Assembly (NCBI RefSeq): GCF_000829315.1
Contig: NZ_AP013028.1
Coordinates: 1,170,001 to 1,202,000, forward strand
Source: Wolbachia endosymbiont of Cimex lectularius
GTDB taxonomy: Bacteria; Pseudomonadota; Alphaproteobacteria; Rickettsiales; Anaplasmataceae
Direction: 5' to 3'
Length of the DNA stretch: 32,000 bases
A program made the position numbers and the translations under genes. This document shows positions 1-29,482 of the stretch, piece after piece. Numbering within the stretch: the stretch's first letter is position 1; each line of letters starts with the position of its first letter. The notes under the pieces were generated by a model that worked only from the letters and a program-made list of their open reading frames with translations, made no database searches and was not told the origin of the DNA.

Positions 1-46
1 ATCTATGCTTACTTTACCTCACATTTCCAAGATTTTAAACAGGTTC
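1..46 (-). mobile_element. Terminal 46 bp (left end, inverted) of a second copy of the IS5-family element; the rest lies outside the window
   Basis: The reverse complement of 1..46 is identical to 17276..17321, the left end of the complete IS. It ends in the same GAACCTGTTTAAAATCTT terminal repeat and abuts a TTA (=TAA) triplet at 47..49. Confidence 0.85.
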
Positions 47-465
47 TTATAATGATACTAAAGCTATTTGTTTATCTTCGCAATCTGTGCAGGTTAAAGA
101 CAAAAAACTTAGGGTATTTGGCGTCTCATGTTTAAATTTTTGCACTATGTGCACCTCACGTCTTTTTAAAACTTCTGGTTTTTACCTATACAAGCTGAAA
201 CGCGCTTATAAGTCGTTTAAGACAGTATAGAACGTCAAATAGACAAGGGAGAATTTGAATACTAGCTGCCCTAGAGTTTTTTTGCCTTTTTTTCCGCTCA
301 GTAAAATTCTTAACGTTTACAGTTTTGGTTAGTTGCATTTAAAAGTAGCTGAATCGTAGCGCTGAGAATAAAAACGCCGATATTTGAGGTACATATAAAT
401 AATTAGCCACCAACGGGGCTTCTTTTGCTTTTTTCTCCATTTGGTAAGTTTCTTAAATATTAAAG
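47..465 (+). repeat. Promoter-bearing intergenic repeat, copy A. The -35 region has been removed by the IS insertion; the leader and two tandem T-rich-ended modules are retained.
   Basis: Positions 123..242 are 120/120 identical to 8245..8364. The flanks are alignable with 8168..8578. Module ends lie at ~275-300 and ~415-465 (GGGGCTTCTTTTGCTTTTTT..TTGGTAAGTTTCTTAAATATT). Confidence 0.85.
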
Positions 466-500
466 CAATTCATGAACGAACATTTATTTTTACAACAAGT

Positions 501-8050: not shown

Positions 8051-8129
8051 TTATGATGATCTTATACCAATTTCCACTACACAGAAGGCGGATGGACAAC
8101 AGTGGAAAAAGTTATAACGTCATCCAATA

Positions 8130-8578
8130 GAAACAAAAAAAACTACTTGACAAATTCCTCCAACCCCATTATAATGATACTGAAGCTATTCATTTAACTT
8201 CACAATCTGCAGATTAAAACGACAAAGGAAACTTTGTATTTGGTGTCTCATGTTTAAATTTTTGCACTATGTGCACCTCACGTCTTTTTAAAACTTCTGG
8301 TTTTTACCTATACAAGCTGAAACGCGCTTATAAGTCGTTTAAGACAGTATAGAACGTCAAATAGAACAAGAGAGAATTTGAATACTAGCTGCTCTGGGTT
8401 TCTTTTGCCTTTTTTTTCTGCTTAGTAAATTTCTTAGCACTTAAGTTAAGGGCCTGTTACAGTTTAAAAGTCGCTAAATTGCAGCGTTTAAGACCTTAAA
8501 AAACGCCAATACTGAAAATAAATATTGATCAGGGCTTTTTTTGCTTTTTTTTCACTTGGTAAATTTCTTAATATTTAT
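8130..8578 (+). repeat. Promoter-bearing intergenic repeat, copy B (the most complete: promoter, leader and two tandem modules)
   Basis: See the promoter at 8147..8175. The core 8245..8364 is identical to 123..242. Modules end at 8393..8440 and 8530..8578 (GGGCTTTTTTTGCTTTTTTTT-CACTTGGTAAATTTCTTAA), 136 nt apart. Confidence 0.85.
8147..8175 (+). promoter_or_regulatory. Consensus sigma70-type promoter inside repeat copy B
   Basis: TTGACA (8147..8152), exactly 17 nt spacer, TATAAT (8170..8175). It is preceded by the A-tract AGAAACAAAAAAAACTAC. Confidence 0.7.
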
Positions 8579-8592
8579 TGCTAGAATAGTAT

Positions 8593-8860
8593 CCTAGGTT
8601 CCAGTGTCAGCTACTTGGATGACAGAAGGGGGCACTTGGATGTACCCACAGACCTGTCATTCCAGCGCGTGACGCTGGGATCCAGGAAAGTTTGCTTGGC
8701 TTACAAGCAAACTAATTTTATGAGCATAGAAAGTAGCTAATCTTAATTTAAAACACAATATTTTAGTTATTATGGAAAGACTGGATCCCAGTGTCGAAGC
8801 ATTGGGATGACAAGGAAGGGGCTACTGGAATGACAGGGGGAGGGGTGCTGGAATGACACC
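8593..8860. repeat. Hairpin-repeat / MITE-like cluster (156-bp element at 8656..8811 flanked by solo hairpins and half-sites)
   Basis: The ends of 8656..8811 are imperfect ~30-bp inverted repeats (GTCATTCCAGCGCGTGACGCTGGGATCCAG versus the reverse complement GTCATCCCAATGCTTCGACACTGGGATCCAG). The internal ..TGAGCATAGAAAGTAGCT.. is shared with 19964..20107. Confidence 0.75.
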
Positions 8861-13867: not shown

Positions 13868-13889
13868 CCAGTGCTCCGACACTGGTTTT
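13868..13889 (+). terminator. Putative intrinsic terminator after guaA
   Basis: CCAGTG-ctccga-CACTGG stem-loop followed by TTTT, starting 8 nt after the guaA stop. Confidence 0.55.
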
Positions 13890-13904
13890 CTAAGCCACAA
13901 GAGC

Positions 13905-13980
13905 CATAAAAACTACTGACAAATTCTTTCAGTTCCCTTATCATAGTATTGAGGCTATTTATCTTCGCAATCTCTGCAGT
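13905..13980 (+). repeat. Promoter-bearing repeat, copy C (promoter and 5' leader only)
   Basis: AAAAACTAC-CTGACA(13916..13921)-17 nt-TATCAT(13939..13944), then AGTATTGAGGCTATTTATCTTCGCAATCTCTGCAG. This aligns with 54..100 of copy A. Confidence 0.75.
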
Positions 13981-14076: not shown

Positions 14077-14907
14077 ATGAATACTACAGTAGAAAAAAAT
14101 AATCCAAAAATTTTTCCTAAAAATGAACACTCAAAAGGCATAGTTGCCCCACCTGTTCCTCCGAAGTCTCACTAAACCAAATTTGCAAGAATAAAAGCAA
14201 TTTTTGAGCAAAATGCGTCTCATTTTCAAGTAAATGATAGTAATACAGTGAGTAGCAATCTTGGGAAAACATTTGGTCCGACAATGCGAAAACTTATGGA
14301 AGATGGCGATATTAACATTCATGTAAGCGCTAGCACTCCCAGCAAACAACGCCGCAACTCGGGGGATAGTGGTGTATCTTCATGCAGTGATGTTAGTGGT
14401 CGCACTTCTGATGATGAAGATAGAGTGATAGAAGAGAAAATGAAAGATACGTTTCCAAAACTACCAGCATGTGCATATAAGCTGGCGCTGTTTCCAAAAC
14501 CATCAAAAGAGAAAATAAACGAACTTCTAAGCAAAAATAGCTACAAAGCTTTAACTTCTACACCAGCTCAAAGTATTAGTAGAAAAAGCACTCCTATTTG
14601 GAGTCCACTTAACCATAATACAGTTTGCATAGGTAAGAAGCCATTCAATTTGGAGAATAGTATGTCAAGTAGTTCGTCTTCGTGTAGTGAAAAAAGCAAT
14701 ATTTCAGATATAAGCGATAAGTCTAATAATTCTAACATTGTCAGATGTAATATTACTAGGAGTAACACTAAATAAGACCTTCGTAAACCTGATGCTTCAT
14801 ATAAACAGGATCCTTCATCAGGAGTTTCTGAAGTGAACGTGGATTATATAAGAAATAGAGTAAAGAAATTAATTGATCAATTTGAACAGAGTGGCCGTAG
14901 CTGCTAA
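14077..14907 (+). pseudogene. Disordered Ser/Pro-rich effector-like gene interrupted by two in-frame TAA codons (14173..14175 and 14773..14775)
   Basis: ATG 14077 has GAGG 8 nt upstream and the copy-C promoter ~130 nt upstream. A single frame runs to TAA 14905..14907 apart from the two TAA codons. The ORF track shows only the middle part (14248..14775). Confidence 0.6.
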
Positions 14908-16983: not shown

Positions 16984-17313
16984 ATGGATGATCCATTTAA
17001 GAGTGGCAATTATAACAAGAATCTCAGTTCTTTGATACAAGTTATAAAGCTGAAAGATACAAAAAAAATTGATAAACAATATAATGAAACGGTAAGAGAT
17101 TTCTCTCAAGCTCTGAAGGATTTTACAAACAAAGCAGAAGATGTAGCTAGGTTTGTTATATATACTGACTTGAATAATTATGTAGAACCGGTGGATAAAA
17201 AGCCATTAGGCCTTTTTGGAGCATTAAAGAGAATATGGCTAGGGAAAGATGTTCCGGTTAAGAATGACAACATAAGAACCTGTTTAAAATCTTGGAAATG
17301 TGAGGTAAAGTAA
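16984..17313 (+). CDS. Hypothetical protein whose last 11 codons and stop are supplied by the IS end
   Basis: The ORF runs into the IS at 17276. Removing the IS and one TAA copy gives ..DNIRNI* with a stop at 18148..18150. No recognisable domain or SD. Confidence 0.4.
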   Translation: MDDPFKSGNYNKNLSSLIQVIKLKDTKKIDKQYNETVRDFSQALKDFTNKAEDVARFVIYTDLNNYVEPVDKKPLGLFGALKRIWLGKDVPVKNDNIRTCLKSWKCEVK

Positions 17314-18136
17314 GCATAGATTAATAATGAGGTGTCTATGCAGAAAAGTTATCCAAGTAATATAAGTCAAGAGCAGTTTGAAAAAATCAGGCCAATTTTG
17401 GAGAGTAGCAAGCAGAAAACAAAACCAAGAAAACTTGATTTGTATGACGTATTTTGTGGGGTGTTGTACGTCTTAAAAAGTGGTTGTCAGTGGAGGATGT
17501 TACCAAAGGGTTTTCCAAGATGGGAAAGCGTATATTACTATTTTCGAGTGTGGAGTAAAAAGAATGGAGAAGAGCCAAGCTTGTTGGAATTAGTCTTAAA
17601 AAAAATTAGTTGGAGAGGTCCGTATCAGCAATGGTCGGAAAGAGAAAACTAGCTTTTGTATAATTGATTCTCAAAGCGTTAAAAACGCAGATACTGCTGA
17701 AAAAAAAAGGCTATGATGCAGGTAAAAAGATTTCAGGGATAAAGCGCCATATTGCAGTTGATACACAAGGTTTGCCACATGCAATTTATGTAACAACGGC
17801 AGAAGCAACTGACCGTAGCAGTGCTGTGAAAATGGTCGAAAATGCTAAAGCAAACCTCTCTGAAGTTAAAAACATACTGGTTGATGCTGGCTACACAGGA
17901 GAAAATTTTGCAACACAAATAAAAGCTATCATTGGTGCGACTGTTGAAGTAATAAAGCGAAGTGAGTTACACACTTTCGTCGTATTGCCAAAAAGATGGG
18001 TTGTTGAACGCTCTTTTGCCTGGTTAGAAAAGTGCAGGCGATTGTGGAAAAATTGCGAGCGGAAGCTCAACACTAGCTTACAGATGATAGTCCTCTCCTT
18101 CATTTCTCTCCTGTTACGAAGATTTTAAACAGGTTC
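17276..18136 (+). mobile_element. Complete IS5-family insertion sequence (ISWpi-like), 861 bp, with a TAA target-site duplication
   Basis: Terminal inverted repeats GAACCTGTTTAAAATCTT (17276..) and AAGATTTTAAACAGGTTC (..18136). It is flanked by TAA at 17273..17275 and 18137..18139, and carries an internal DDE transposase. Confidence 0.9.
17332..18128 (+). CDS. IS5-family DDE transposase, encoded in three successive frames joined at A8 (17598..17605) and A9 (17700..17708) runs
   Basis: Frame 1 encodes ..CGVLYVLKSGCQWRMLPKGFP... Frame 2 encodes KKLVGEVRISNGRKEKTSFCIIDSQSVKNADTAEKK. Frame 0 encodes GYDAGKKISGIKRHIAVDTQG..LVDAGYTGENF..KRWVVERSFAWL. Confidence 0.85.
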
Positions 18137-18227
18137 TAAGGAACATATAGAAGCAAAAAGAGCAAATAAACAGCAGCAACAATCTAAACCTACAATACTT
18201 CCAAAGCCTAAAAGTGCTGATCAACAA

Positions 18228-19963: not shown

Positions 19964-20107
19964 GGTGTCATCCAAGTAGCTGACACTGGGATCCAGGAAT
20001 TTTACTAAGTTGATGAGCATAAAAATAGCTGTTTTATGTTAAGACACAACGTTTTTAATGGGATTGCGTGCGGACTGGGTTCCAGTGTCAAGCGCTGGAA
20101 TGACACC
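19964..20107. repeat. MITE-like element with hairpin-forming inverted ends
   Basis: GGTGTCATCCAAGTAGCTGACACTGGGATCCAGG ... CTGGGTTCCAGTGTCAAGCGCTGGAATGACACC. The internal TGAGCATAAAAATAGCT is shared with 8656..8811. Confidence 0.75.
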
Positions 20108-20204
20108 TTTATGTTTGAGGCAAAATCCTCTATAACATTTAACACACTGTTTTTGGAACAAATGTTCGCACAGTTATGTGCTCCGACATCTATTTTCTTT
20201 TTCT

Positions 20205-20237
20205 GGATTCCAGCGTCACGCGCTGGAATGACACCAA
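20205..20237. repeat. Solo hairpin repeat
   Basis: GGATTCCAGCG-tcacg-CGCTGGAATGACACC has the same core as 503..533. Confidence 0.8.
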
Positions 20238-20296
20238 ACTGGGCTATTGATTTTCTACTTAAATAATAGTTATAAGGAAAGTCCAACCTTTGATAT

Positions 20297-22420: not shown

Positions 22421-22810
22421 TATAAATATTTAAGAAATTTACCAAGCAAGAAAAAAAAAGCAAAAGAAGCCCTGGCCATTGTTTATTTTCAGTATTGGCG
22501 TTTTTATGCCTTAAACGCTGCAATTTAGCTGCTTTTAAACGCAACTAGTCTAAGCTATAATATTTAAGAAATTTACCAGGCAGAAGAAAAGGACAATAAA
22601 ACCCCGAGGTAGCTAGTTATTCCACTCTCTATTTTAAAATCCGACGTTGGGTGATGTCTTAAACGACTTATAAGCGCGTTTCAGCTTGTATGGGTAAAAA
22701 CCCGAAGTTTTAAAAAGACATGCAGTGCATAGATTGGGAAGTTAAACAAATAGCTTCAGTTTCATTATAAAGGGGTTGAAAGGATTTGCCAAGTAATTTT
22801 TTTGGCCCGT
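22421..22810 (-). repeat. Promoter-bearing intergenic repeat, copy D (inverted orientation; two tandem modules)
   Basis: On the minus strand: A-tract, TTGGCA (22787..22792), 17 nt spacer, TATAAT (22764..22769), then the leader GAAACTGAAGCTATTTGTTTAACTT. The core 22655..22719 matches 8282..8346 with a few mismatches. Module ends lie at ~22590-22610 and ~22445-22475. Confidence 0.8.
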
Positions 22811-27649: not shown

Positions 27650-27810
27650 AGAATCCCTTCAAATATAGCTCTGTGGCTTATTATATGAATATAAGAGACC
27701 GAAAAACTTCTACACATGAATTGCAAAGGCAGTATGTTAAATGTTATAGCAGTTAAATGCAAATAAGTACACTTGTGCAAACATTGTCAGCCGTAAGCTA
27801 AATAATTCAC

Positions 27811-28288
27811 AGAAACAAAAAAACTACTTGACAACCTGCGCCAGTCCCCTTACAATAGAGTTGTGGGTGTTTTAGACCTAAAATTTATTTTGAATCTTTG
27901 TATTAAGTGACAAAAGCACAGTATAAAACAAGGCGTGTTATGTTTAATTTTTGCAGCATGGATACTGCATGTCTTTATAATTTTTTGCCTACATTAGCTG
28001 GACCTCGCTTATTAAGCGGTGTAAGAGAGAACCGGACGCCAAGTTTTTGAGAGAACAGTAAACAACTCACGTTGCGGGGTTTCGTTTGTCTTTTTTTTTA
28101 ATTAGTTAAAAATTTAACCAATCTCATTTTTTTCACAAAAAAATTGCTTGACAAGTTTCAACGTTTCCCTTATCATGAAATTATGGGTATTTACAACCCT
28201 AAGGTCAGCTACTTGTTAAGCGTATAGAGCATTAACGCCAAGTTATTAAAATAGATATTGACCAGGGCTTCTTTTGCCTTTTTTTCAG
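27811..28288 (+). repeat. Promoter-bearing repeat, locus E (divergent; two modules, each with its own promoter)
   Basis: AGAAACAAAAAAACTAC-TTGACA(27828..27833)-17-TACAAT(27851..27856), and AAAAAAAATTGC-TTGACA(28148..28153)-17-TATCAT(28171..28176). Module ends are GGGGTTTCGTTTGTCTTTTTTTTT (28077..28100) and AGGGCTTCTTTTGCCTTTTTTT (28264..28285). Confidence 0.7.
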
Positions 28289-28382
28289 CTTTTATGCAAG
28301 AAAATAGTCAGATTATAGCAAACTAAGTTTTGATGCAAACGTGGCTTTTCAAAATTTTGCAAAAATCCTTTAATTAGCAGGG

Positions 28383-28409
28383 TTGACTTATTTTTTTAGT
28401 GTTTATAAT
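28383..28409 (+). promoter_or_regulatory. Possible proximal promoter of the sirtuin-like gene
   Basis: TTGACT (28383..28388), 15 nt spacer (short), TATAAT (28404..28409), 30 nt before ATG 28439. Confidence 0.35.
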
Positions 28410-28438
28410 GAAGGTTAGGTTATCAGATAGCATAGGTG

Positions 28439-29482
28439 ATGCGTAATCTTCTGCAAAAATGTTTAATTCTACTAATTCTTAGTATAAATGTCTGTTATGC
28501 GGAGAATGTTTTACTGCAAGCCCCACAAAAAGTTTCTGAAGAAGACATCAATAGAGTAACAGCTAATCATGACAGTAGTATGTGCTTTGCTCAGACAGAA
28601 CCGGGAAAATGGCATGTGAAATGGTGCTGGAACTCTTGTATAGACTCTGGAAATAGCAAATCAGGGTTTCAACTATCCTTTAATGGTGATGATTTAATTA
28701 AAGAATTGACAAAGCAAGAAAATGTCTCGCTCAGCGATAAAGAAGGACAAAAAAATTACGAATACGGTTGTGTAGTTAGTGACAAAAGGTTAAGTAGCAA
28801 AAGATCAAACAATACCTATCATTTTGCTCAAACTTTGTACGTACGAAATGCAACTCCAAATAGGATATCAGTACCACAAGTTGTTAAACTCATCAACGAC
28901 AAGAATGTAGTTTTCTACACTGGTGCTGGAATATCAGCACTAGTAGTGCCAGATGTATCCGAGCTTAATAAACAATTTGGAGTAGCTTTTTACGACCGCA
29001 ACTTAAAGCAAGATGATGCTATTGCACTTATACATAAAATTCTCAAGGAACCAGAAAAGTTTGCGAAAATTATAGACAATTTCTACAAAGCTTGTCTTTA
29101 TGGCATACCAACTTCAGCTCATTACGCAGTGAAGAATATAGCTTTACTTAAAAATTGGCAGCTACTCACTGAAAATGTGGATTTACTTCACCAACGTTCA
29201 GGGATTGAGGTCTTGGGAAACACGGGTGGTAAAATGAATTTTGATTGGTTGATGAATAATATCAAACCAGAGCACTTAAGGCAAATTGATTTTATTGTTA
29301 CCTGCGGACTCAATAGTGACACAGTTGGGTTTCTCGCTTTGTATAAAAAGCATAATCCTAAAGGAAAGATAATTGCAATGAATCTAGTACAACCAAATTA
29401 CTTAGGAGATGATGATATTTTGGTAGCTGGTGATTTGCAAGAAACTTTGCCTGATTTATTTGAGAACTTATCTCGGCTTTAG
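28439..29482 (+). CDS. Secreted/periplasmic SIR2(sirtuin)-fold protein lacking the catalytic His and the Zn module
   Basis: Sec-type signal peptide MRNLLQKCLILLILSINVCYA|EN. Sirtuin motifs are TGAGIS (GAGIS at 28922..28936), LLTENVDLLHQRSG (29171..29203; compare TQNIDxLHxxAG) and a C-terminal LVAGDLQETLPDLFENL. The expected ..ELHG.. reads IEVLGNT, and there are no CxxC pairs. Confidence 0.6.
   Translation: MRNLLQKCLILLILSINVCYAENVLLQAPQKVSEEDINRVTANHDSSMCFAQTEPGKWHVKWCWNSCIDSGNSKSGFQLSFNGDDLIKELTKQENVSLSDKEGQKNYEYGCVVSDKRLSSKRSNNTYHFAQTLYVRNATPNRISVPQVVKLINDKNVVFYTGAGISALVVPDVSELNKQFGVAFYDRNLKQDDAIALIHKILKEPEKFAKIIDNFYKACLYGIPTSAHYAVKNIALLKNWQLLTENVDLLHQRSGIEVLGNTGGKMNFDWLMNNIKPEHLRQIDFIVTCGLNSDTVGFLALYKKHNPKGKIIAMNLVQPNYLGDDDILVAGDLQETLPDLFENLSRL

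Follow-up and report, generated by a model that had tools for sequence, protein, structure and literature searches.

The Correia or NEMIS elements of Neisseria are small, non-coding, multi-copy intergenic repeats that contain functional promoter elements and are transcribed. They belong to the miniature inverted-repeat transposable elements (MITEs), bear inverted repeats at their termini and duplicate a TA target, and their promoters arise at the element ends. The pneumococcal BOX element is a modular intergenic repeat with variable tandem internal modules, which is transcribed and predicted to fold and has no promoter of its own, while the small RNA (sRNA) families LhrC1-5 of Listeria, AbcR1/2 of rhizobia and Qrr1-5 of Vibrio comprise two to seven copies with canonical terminators and known regulators, chaperones and targets. 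Here we examine a dispersed intergenic repeat, first noticed from sequence alone, in a 32,000-nt stretch of the genome of the Wolbachia endosymbiont of Cimex lectularius (the window). In contrast to the Correia elements, the Wolbachia unit has neither inverted repeats nor a target duplication, and it holds a complete internal cassette of an upstream (UP)-like element, a -35 box and a -10 box. The modular tandem design is shared with BOX, whereas the promoter is the unit's own and the sequence is unrelated. The closest likeness to the LhrC, AbcR and Qrr families lies in paralogous non-coding RNA (ncRNA) units with conserved promoters, sometimes in tandem as at the window copies E1 and E2, yet the Wolbachia family reaches at least 16 sampled copies in a single genome, that of the Cantharis strain wCcry, and lacks a canonical terminator. 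The family falls among promoter-bearing intergenic repeats or multi-copy sRNA genes and is no new category, and its sequence has already been listed anonymously; literature searches returned no account of Wolbachia repeats that form a promoter-bearing family. On balance we favour the reading that each unit is a self-contained sigma-70 transcription unit of a Wolbachia-wide family, which spreads at the DNA level, encodes a structured ncRNA and is kept by selection in most arthropod strains.

The copy at 8126-8572 on the forward strand (copy A) serves as the reference for the unit. Its 5′ repeat edge (8126-8146) is formed by CTAC and, before it, a UP-element-like A-tract (about -47 to -40), and BLAST alignment starts cluster at 8120-8139. 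The core sigma-70 promoter at 8147-8175 consists of the -35 box TTGACA (8147-8152), a C-rich 17-nt spacer (8153-8169) and the -10 box TATAAT (8170-8175), and matches the consensus in 12 of 12 positions. The transcription start is predicted at 8182, the G of GAAGCTATT and the seventh nucleotide after the -10 box, from homology to wMel members whose starts were mapped by Cappable-seq or by rapid amplification of 5′ cDNA ends (5′ RACE). A 5′-terminal hairpin GAAGCTA/TAACTTC extends from +1 (8182-8201), and a second short hairpin or palindrome, AATCTGCAGATT, follows at 8204-8215. In the central domain of approximately 125 nt (8237-8364), TTTGGTGT/ACGTCAAA forms the closing helix, within which lie a GTCTT/AAGAC helix and three hairpins, GCAC-TAT-GTGC, GGT/ACC and AAACG...CGTTT. 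Module 1 ends at 8397-8417 in the pyrimidine tract GGGTTTCTTTTGCC plus T8, which is conserved across the family and has no local hairpin before it. Module 2 (8418-8572; repeat families D4 and D8) is an incomplete tandem copy of module 1's 3′ third, and contains a hairpin GCGTTT..AAACGC, the motif ACGCCAA, GGGCTTTTTTTGC plus T8 at 8533-8553 and, as the 3′ repeat edge, TTGGTAAATTTCTTAA at 8557-8572; the BLAST alignment ends cluster at 8570-8589.

The same organization holds for the family as a whole. When 60 distinct full copies are aligned with MAFFT, the unit is about 450 nt long and conservation falls sharply at both ends. The 5′ part of the consensus reads A-tract, CTAC, TTGACA, 17 nt, TATCAT and 6 nt to the start, with a leader that opens with GAAGCTATT; module 1 ends in GGGGTTTCTTTTGCC plus T7 and then GTAAATTTCTTAA, and module 2 in CCAGGGCTTCTTTTGCC plus T7 and TTGGTAAATTTCTTAA. 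Runs of T7-T9 are found at every module end. The submodule ends are spaced by 133-135 nt across loci, with a rarer second mode of 143-145 nt, and more than two submodules were not found in any fetched copy. Within the window the spacings are 143, 135 and 134 nt. A small open reading frame (ORF) in module 1 (MFNFLHYVHL..) was dropped from consideration, as its ATG and frame, read from the alignment, differ among subfamilies.

Further copies were collected from a set of species-representative genomes with a search motif internal to module 1, AGCTGAAN{0,1}CGCGCTTATAA, from which the promoter was excluded to avoid circularity. At least 120 loci carry this motif, about 110 of them in Wolbachia and about 10 being chance matches in unrelated taxa. 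Twelve Wolbachia genomes are thus sampled: the endosymbionts of Cantharis cryptica, Psylliodes chrysocephala, Tettigetta isshikii, Penenirmus auritus and Mansonella ozzardi, together with wStur, C61_2, WOLB0025 and four metagenome-assembled genomes (MAGs) labelled 'Rickettsiales'. These counts are lower bounds, taken among the matches listed, and the sampling is biased to the canonical subfamily. An ORF of at least 110 aa overlaps only 1 of 120 copies. No Rfam family matched the element, and an E-value search with it gave nothing meaningful.

The promoter was compared among the 100 copies that have at least 260 nt of upstream sequence. The cassette is present in 98 of them in an ungapped alignment, that is, with fixed spacing, and is also found in 12 of 14 copies that were recovered by the structure model and lack the exact search motif. 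TTGACA is exact in 90 of the 98 cassettes, while the -10 box is mostly TAT[C/T/A]AT (75 of 98; TATCAT 53, TATTAT 11, TATAAT 11). Although 16-18 bp were allowed, a 17-bp spacer was found in all of the approximately 75 regular-expression matches, with no spacer indels; the leader, from the start site to the core, differs in length by tens of nucleotides. The twelve hexamer positions are conserved at 94.9%, as compared with 72.8% for the seventeen spacer positions, and the putative UP-like A-tract has A in 78-90 of 90 aligned cassettes. Those copies that lack a strong promoter mostly have point mutations in the hexamers and retain the cassette itself. Their distribution is uneven: strong promoters are found in 1 of 7 copies in wMoz, 0 of 5 in C61_2 and 0 of 2 in wStur (1 of 14), as compared with 72 of the 86 copies in the other genomes (Fisher p = 3e-8). 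Conserved hexamers with a free spacer sequence, a fixed spacer length and decay in particular lineages are the pattern expected of a promoter that is selected where it is used.

Published start-site data place transcription initiation at this cassette. Suliman et al. 2025 (PMC12558409) tabulated each Cappable-seq start with 50 nt of upstream and 100 nt of downstream sequence, and three of the wMelPop-CLA rows were recognized as family members by sequence. All three have TTGACA-17-TATCAT. In oTSS_-_131390 (40 counts per million, cpm) the start is the G of GAAGCTATTT, in iTSS_+_713865 (69 cpm) it is the G of GAGGCTATTG, and in iTSSps_+_1067756 (45 cpm) it lies one base earlier, which is still the seventh nucleotide after the -10 box (PMC12558409). 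Since multi-mapping reads were discarded in that study (PMC12558409), these values are lower bounds. Two of the starts, oTSS 131390 and iTSS 713865, rise approximately 3-5-fold at 4 h at both 34 °C and 21 °C (log2 fold change, log2FC, 2.4/2.4 and 1.4/1.6; PMC12558409). Independently, the 5′ RACE clones IGR-1021 and IGR-1047 of Woolfit et al. 2015 (PMC4349823, S1 File Table C), which open with GAAG..., are family members, and family sequence also contains the PCR primers of IGR-1049 and IGR-1035. The original prediction had expected starts 6-8 nt after the -10 box, and the wMel homologues, which start at the seventh nucleotide by both methods, agree with it; by homology, copy A is predicted to start at 8182. 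Together with the conservation in 98 of 100 copies, these starts support the proposal that the cassette is a genuine promoter which belongs to the dispersed repeat as one of its conserved, integral components.

No start in the wMel or wAlbB tables, on either strand, carries the module-end motifs within -50 to +100 nt, so the cassette appears to be the only start of the unit, and an internal or antisense promoter at TTGGTAAATTTCTTAA was rejected on the same ground. In wAlbB, oTSS_-_948792 is the weak and shifted start of a canonical copy that has degenerated, while oTSS_+_402708 is an orphan transcript of 758-1988 cpm with a related cassette, AAAAAAATACTTGACA-17-TATTAT (PMC12558409 Tables S2, S3). 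The leader of the latter has a palindrome, AAGTCTGCAGACTT, analogous to AATCTGCAGATT. This transcript collapses with a log2FC of -11.5 in the first antibiotic column and -8.3 in one temperature condition (PMC12558409), a regulation that would be unusually strong for Wolbachia. Identity of the family with ncrwmel01, ncrwmel02, the 915471 oTSS or WsnRNA46 was considered and rejected, as the sequences differ.

Comparison of the transcribed part among copies points to a conserved RNA structure. A structure drawn by hand, consisting of the +1 hairpin, AAUCUG..CAGAUU, the closing helix UUGGCGUC/GACGCCAA, GCAC-UAU-GUGC, GUCUU/AAGAC, UAGGU/ACCUA and AAACG/CGUUU, is 93% paired in 53 module-1 sequences, as compared with 33-41% when the partners are slid. 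In these 53 copies the +1 hairpin is paired in 91% of cells, with A-U to G-U changes and one pair showing a G-U/C-G exchange, and the second hairpin is paired in 94%, its variants being U-G/G-U wobbles in 14 cells as opposed to A-C in 1 cell. For the central domain, a covariance model (R1; 129 positions, 30 pairs) gave 125 matches in 100 sources, four of them inside the window, including copy A with 139.7 bits. Among 117 distinct matches 89.5% of cells are paired, against 32-45% in slid controls. Double-sided changes occur in 14 of 30 pairs, against 9.3 +/- 1.8 in shuffles (reached by 5 of 500), and in 76 cells, against 32 +/- 5 (reached by none of 500). Compensatory changes affect 6 of the 8 closing-helix pairs and all 5 pairs of one hairpin, and in other subfamilies the GCAC hairpin is swapped for GCAGTAC-ATAG-GTACTGT, GCAGTAT-ATAG-ATACTGT or GCAG-N8-CTGC. 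G-U cells outnumber A-C cells 129 to 64 overall and 57 to 6 in the closing helix, an excess which favours pairing in a sense-strand RNA over a symmetric DNA palindrome. A long-range pairing of leader and tail before the first T-run was left out of the structure, the cognate energy being -13.7 kcal/mol as compared with -12.8 kcal/mol for permuted partners.

The T-runs at the module ends, which had been proposed to terminate sRNAs, do not appear to be intrinsic terminators. A stable stem before them was not found in copy A: the last 45 nt before T-runs 1 and 2 fold with -5.9 and -4.1 kcal/mol, whereas shuffled sequences give -6.9 and -4.6 kcal/mol. A terminator scan made no call at 8397-8417 or 8533-8553, and otherwise only a marginal 5-bp stem at 28264. 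In addition, the IGR-1047 RACE clone passes the first T-run and continues into module 2 (PMC4349823). Intrinsic termination at the T-runs was set aside as unsupported.

In the window, a profile hidden Markov model built from 60 copies of other genomes matched six loci and nothing more. They comprise a full copy, a copy with an internal deletion, a diverged copy, two partial copies and a copy interrupted by an insertion sequence (IS). The match to copy A (8115-8843) takes in adjoining repeats. Copy A' (46..470, forward strand; profile match 46-586) has both modules, with an R1 match at 115-242 of 143 bits. Copy B (13905..13979, forward; profile match 13888-13979) consists of CTGACA-17-TATCAT and the 5′ leader only, is 3′-truncated and corresponds to consensus positions 10-84. 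Copy C (22425..22803, reverse strand; profile match 22827-22396) lies upstream of rpsP and has TTGGCA-17-TATAAT, a leader shortened by about 58 nt, and modules 1 and 2. Copy E1 (27817..28100, forward; profile match 27788-28116) combines TTGACA-17-TACAAT with a diverged module 1 of about 65% identity to the consensus, which is matched by R1 at 27927-28046 with 65 bits. Copy E2 (28137..28290, forward; profile match 28137-28309) starts with a second cassette, TTGACA-17-TATCAT, and is a unit of about 105 nt ending in the module-2 tail CCAGGGCTTCTTTTGCC plus T7, that is, a promoter joined to the tail of a submodule. No antisense match was found in the window outside the copies themselves.

All five predicted cassettes were recovered with their hexamers and 17-nt spacers at 8147-8175(+), 27828-27856(+), 28148-28176(+), 22792-22764(-) and 13916-13944(+); the first matches the sigma-70 consensus in 12 of 12 positions and three others in 11 of 12. 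Promoter matches of at least 11/12 number 6 in the window, as compared with 1.85 +/- 1.4 in Markov-1 random sequences, and four of the six are family cassettes. The spacer ends are C-rich as described (CCCAT, TCCCT, CCCTT, CCCCT, TCCCT), although the strict form CCC(A/T)T does not hold. The sixth copy, A', keeps the -10 box alone: positions 1-50 are a 100% reverse complement of the end of an IS5-family element at 17272-17321, so the terminal part of a further IS5 copy (1..47) interrupts A' inside its promoter. This second copy is oppositely oriented and inserted exactly at the -10 box. The element at 17272-18137 has a transposase split into two ORFs, 17332-17652 and 17664-18128 (together 17332-18128).

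Copies A' and A share a run of 121 identical nucleotides (123-243 = 8245-8365), one more than the predicted 120/120, while the flanks of the run are 78% and 88% identical. At an identity of about 85% such a run has a probability of about 3e-9, and it indicates recent gene conversion or strong constraint on the central domain. Orthologous sites were also compared between strains. The rpsP-upstream copy is common to wPaur, with modules 1 and 2 about 96% identical and the promoter spacer of a different subfamily. The PBP2-adjacent copy (27650-28440) is common to MAG Spi319 (L096:3700-4500), where the flank and promoter are about 95% and the transcribed body about 65% identical, the ortholog of E1 there bearing the canonical body. 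At this locus identity falls to about 65% from the first transcribed base, which places the breakpoint of the body swap at the -10/+1 junction, and the 3′ partner module differs as well. The orf383-serS junction, the site of copy A, is empty in wCcry, with 123 nt between the neighbours. As these three sites differ among strains, the family is, to judge from the sequences, old, mosaic and reshuffled by recombination, with occasional gain or loss. The suggestion of copying or conversion in the original prediction is supported by the 121-nt tract and by the mosaic junctions between promoter and body at the E and rpsP loci.

The mode of copying was narrowed by several negative results. With a length of about 450 bp, a non-coding sequence, multiple copies and an intergenic location the unit has MITE-like traits, but no terminal inverted repeats join the ends in the window or are visible in 63 copy termini, and the flanks of these 63 copies show no target-site duplication; several alternative flanking modules recur instead on both sides. 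A MITE was therefore rejected. Retro-copying through RNA was rejected by logic, because the promoter, which lies upstream of the start and is not transcribed, travels with the unit; copying thus takes place at the DNA level. An origin from phage WO or a plasmid was set aside as well, since only two 90-nt fragments occur in WO records and none in plasmids, and a scan for viral contigs was empty. One of the two leader fragments, in HQ906662.1 (WOVitA1, 42-133), lies at the extreme end of the prophage record beside a recombinase gene and might bear on the prophage junction; the other, in a wRi 'phage WO' record (MN180249.1, 24160-24247), is a promoter-plus-leader fragment between ruvA and rnhB. 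Draft Wolbachia assemblies with identical RpsP (L002-L005, GCA_9026368xx/9026365xx contigs) break about 340-360 nt upstream of rpsP, inside the repeat, and the family is a systematic cause of contig ends.

The surroundings of the copies are likewise repetitive. Two alternative upstream modules recur before the A-tract, GACTTCTTGCATAAC..TTTTGGCAGCGCGTTGGA and CACTACACAGAAAGCGGATAGACAACAGTGGAAAAAGCTA, one set of loci being L027, L032, L045, L082, L100, L101 and L106 and the other the window at 8060-8125 together with L044, L066, L069 and L116. Three downstream modules recur too, and Wolbachia intergenic DNA here is a mosaic of few building blocks. Clusters of palindromic hairpin repeats of the TGTCATTCCAGCG..CGCTGGAATGACA type stand directly 3′ of copy A at 8590-8830 and also at 500-565 and 19966-20240. 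The segment 8655-8812 scores 48.4 and 35.3 bits on its two strands against Rfam WsnRNA46 (RF02625), below the gathering score of 65.3. Hairpins of the same type in wMel and wAlbB have starts of their own, with TTGACA in the hairpin loop, for example asTSS_-_218317 (PMC12558409). The genes of the window include those for a WD_0964-family protein, topA, serS, purD, guaA, recR, trpS, grpE, rpsP, acpS, proS, PBP2 and mreB; no tRNA genes and no Rfam matches at the gathering score were found in it. An ankyrin-repeat ORF at 696-1187 holds two tandem 99-nt repeats (853-1050, 81% identical), and intragenic repeats like these are the kind used for typing Wolbachia by multiple-locus variable-number tandem repeat (VNTR) analysis.

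Parts of the family have been on record since 2004. Wu et al. 2004 (PLoS Biol 2:e69, Table S1) list wMel 713868-714301 and 1216516-1216820 as repeat class 11, 130990-131233 and 1067796-1067955 as class 29 and 1190018-1190122 as class 4, and these pieces coincide with the wMel members found through the start-site rows and RACE clones. The possibility that the copies are fragments of an annotated element is thus correct as far as their listing is concerned, but the classes are fragmentary and anonymous, without unit boundaries, promoter, transcript, structure, function or assignment to a mobile element. Woolfit et al. 2015 (PMC4349823) treated family loci singly and set repetitive candidates aside, and in Suliman et al. 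2025 (PMC12558409) the loci were likewise treated singly and multi-mapping reads were removed; a shared promoter-bearing repeat was recognized in neither study. The likeness to the VNTR loci used in strain typing is plausible, on indirect grounds. VNTR-141 (Riegler et al. 2005, 2012) is a single intergenic locus with a 141-nt period, a 108-nt core, an internal hairpin and up to 7 tandem periods; compared by description, it resembles the family in being an intergenic tandem unit of similar period with an internal hairpin, whereas the units in the fetched loci have at most two submodules (133-135 or 143-145 nt), behind a promoter. Class 29 spans module 1/2 of a confirmed member and also covers wMel 90.3-90.6 kb, the VNTR-141 region (WD0096-WD0098) as estimated from neighbouring gene coordinates.

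In the transcription-unit reading, the UP-like A-tract, the consensus -35 box, the invariant 17-bp spacer and the TATCAT or TATAAT -10 box would recruit RNA polymerase, and the seventh nucleotide beyond the -10 box would be the first one transcribed, as mapped in wMel and expected in this strain. The hairpin at +1 probably stabilizes the RNA; it would be followed by the second short hairpin, the domain of about 125 nt closed by UUGGCGUC/GACGCCAA, and the pyrimidine tract with U7-9. As no local hairpin precedes the tract, termination there is probably leaky or factor-dependent. Read-through would add module 2, which ends in the same tract, and at some loci would enter the downstream gene, as it does at one wMel locus. 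New copies would arise by duplication, recombination or gene conversion of DNA, classical transposition being unlikely. The conservation of promoter and pairing argues that selection maintains the unit in most arthropod Wolbachia. Several observations weigh against this reading. The minimum free energy of the whole element is no better than that of shuffled sequences (z = -0.7, +1.2, +0.1), and the covariation statistics ignore relatedness, with the structure drawn from the consensus and the A5 alignment fitted to the model. The start-site levels in wMel are modest (40-70 cpm, with multi-mappers discarded), and the RACE positions of Woolfit et al. are not in the Cappable-seq table. Finally, the sample of 12 genomes leans to the canonical subfamily, and in a genome where selection is weak the persistence of the family may in part be neutral or selfish.

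A selfish or decaying repeat, spread in a MITE-like manner or by recombination, with a promoter left over from an ancestral gene or element and transcripts without function, is the strongest of the rivals, though we regard it as unlikely. It would account for the cataloguing of the wMel pieces as anonymous repeats (classes 4, 11 and 29), the mosaic flanks with their variable 5′ and 3′ partner modules, the gene conversion, the presence/absence polymorphism and the promoter decay in some lineages, and Wu et al. 2004 (PLoS Biol 2:e69) hold selection to be inefficient in Wolbachia. Against it stand the lack of terminal inverted repeats and target-site duplications, and the absence of any match beyond 90-nt fragments in phage WO records, with none in plasmids. 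Hexamers far more conserved than their spacer, spacing that is invariant in 98 copies and compensatory changes in the helices also speak against it, and since the promoter does decay where selection seems relaxed, its intactness elsewhere needs explaining. Somewhat less likely again is that the repeat is kept for the promoter and long 5′ untranslated leader that it gives to a downstream gene, as proposed in the original prediction. Every intact cassette in the window does face an ORF on the same strand, IGR-1021 is co-transcribed with the downstream coding sequence (PMC4349823), solo promoter-plus-leader fragments exist (copy B and the ruvA-rnhB fragment of the wRi record), and the rpsP-upstream copy is common to two strains. 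A 32-codon ORF (MNTTVEKNNPKIFPKNEHSKGIVAPPVPPKSH) at 14077-14175, 3′ of the truncated copy B and with a purine-rich stretch before its ATG, is the sole window candidate for a gene served by a solo cassette. However, among 91 copies in the fetched loci, with ORFs of at least 110 aa counted, the downstream gene is co-directional in 46 and opposite in 45, and the median distance is the same in both classes; the gene-facing pattern of the window is therefore due to chance or at least not general. The two U-runs and the conserved, structured RNA of 400 nt would be superfluous for a simple promoter donor, and at the empty site in wCcry serS stands 123 nt from its neighbour without the repeat. A function of the repeat as DNA, as a VNTR or hairpin array for replication, recombination or nucleoid binding whose promoter-like sequence is coincidental, is very improbable. 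The palindromes, the tandem submodules with a period of 133-145 nt and an indirect link to VNTR-141 through class 29 fit it, but starts were mapped at the cassette in two independent studies, which largely refutes it, and the wobble changes fit pairing in a sense-strand RNA better than a symmetric DNA palindrome.

Wolbachia is not genetically manipulable and has few regulators of gene expression. In this setting a stronger version of the transcription-unit reading can be put forward, though only tentatively, as it is at present doubtful: the most abundant anonymous repeat of arthropod Wolbachia may be a dedicated gene family, whose tens of paralogues per genome would encode a structured, stress-responsive ncRNA. 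Purifying selection would maintain this RNA across supergroups, some reduced lineages having lost it, and it would be a major regulator acting in trans, or an effector at the RNA level, in a bacterium with almost no transcription factors. Even without this extension, if the transcription-unit reading is true, a repeat class seen as clutter since 2004 would be a family of promoter-driven RNA genes. It would then also be explained why wMel intergenic regions listed as sRNA candidates, and dropped as repetitive, are alike, and why draft assemblies break at repeat sites, while the removal of multi-mapping reads would hide what may collectively be a highly transcribed family. Reporters could further make use of the cassette as a compact Wolbachia promoter that is near consensus and has a mapped start, and the family would provide a defined RNA for tests of function.

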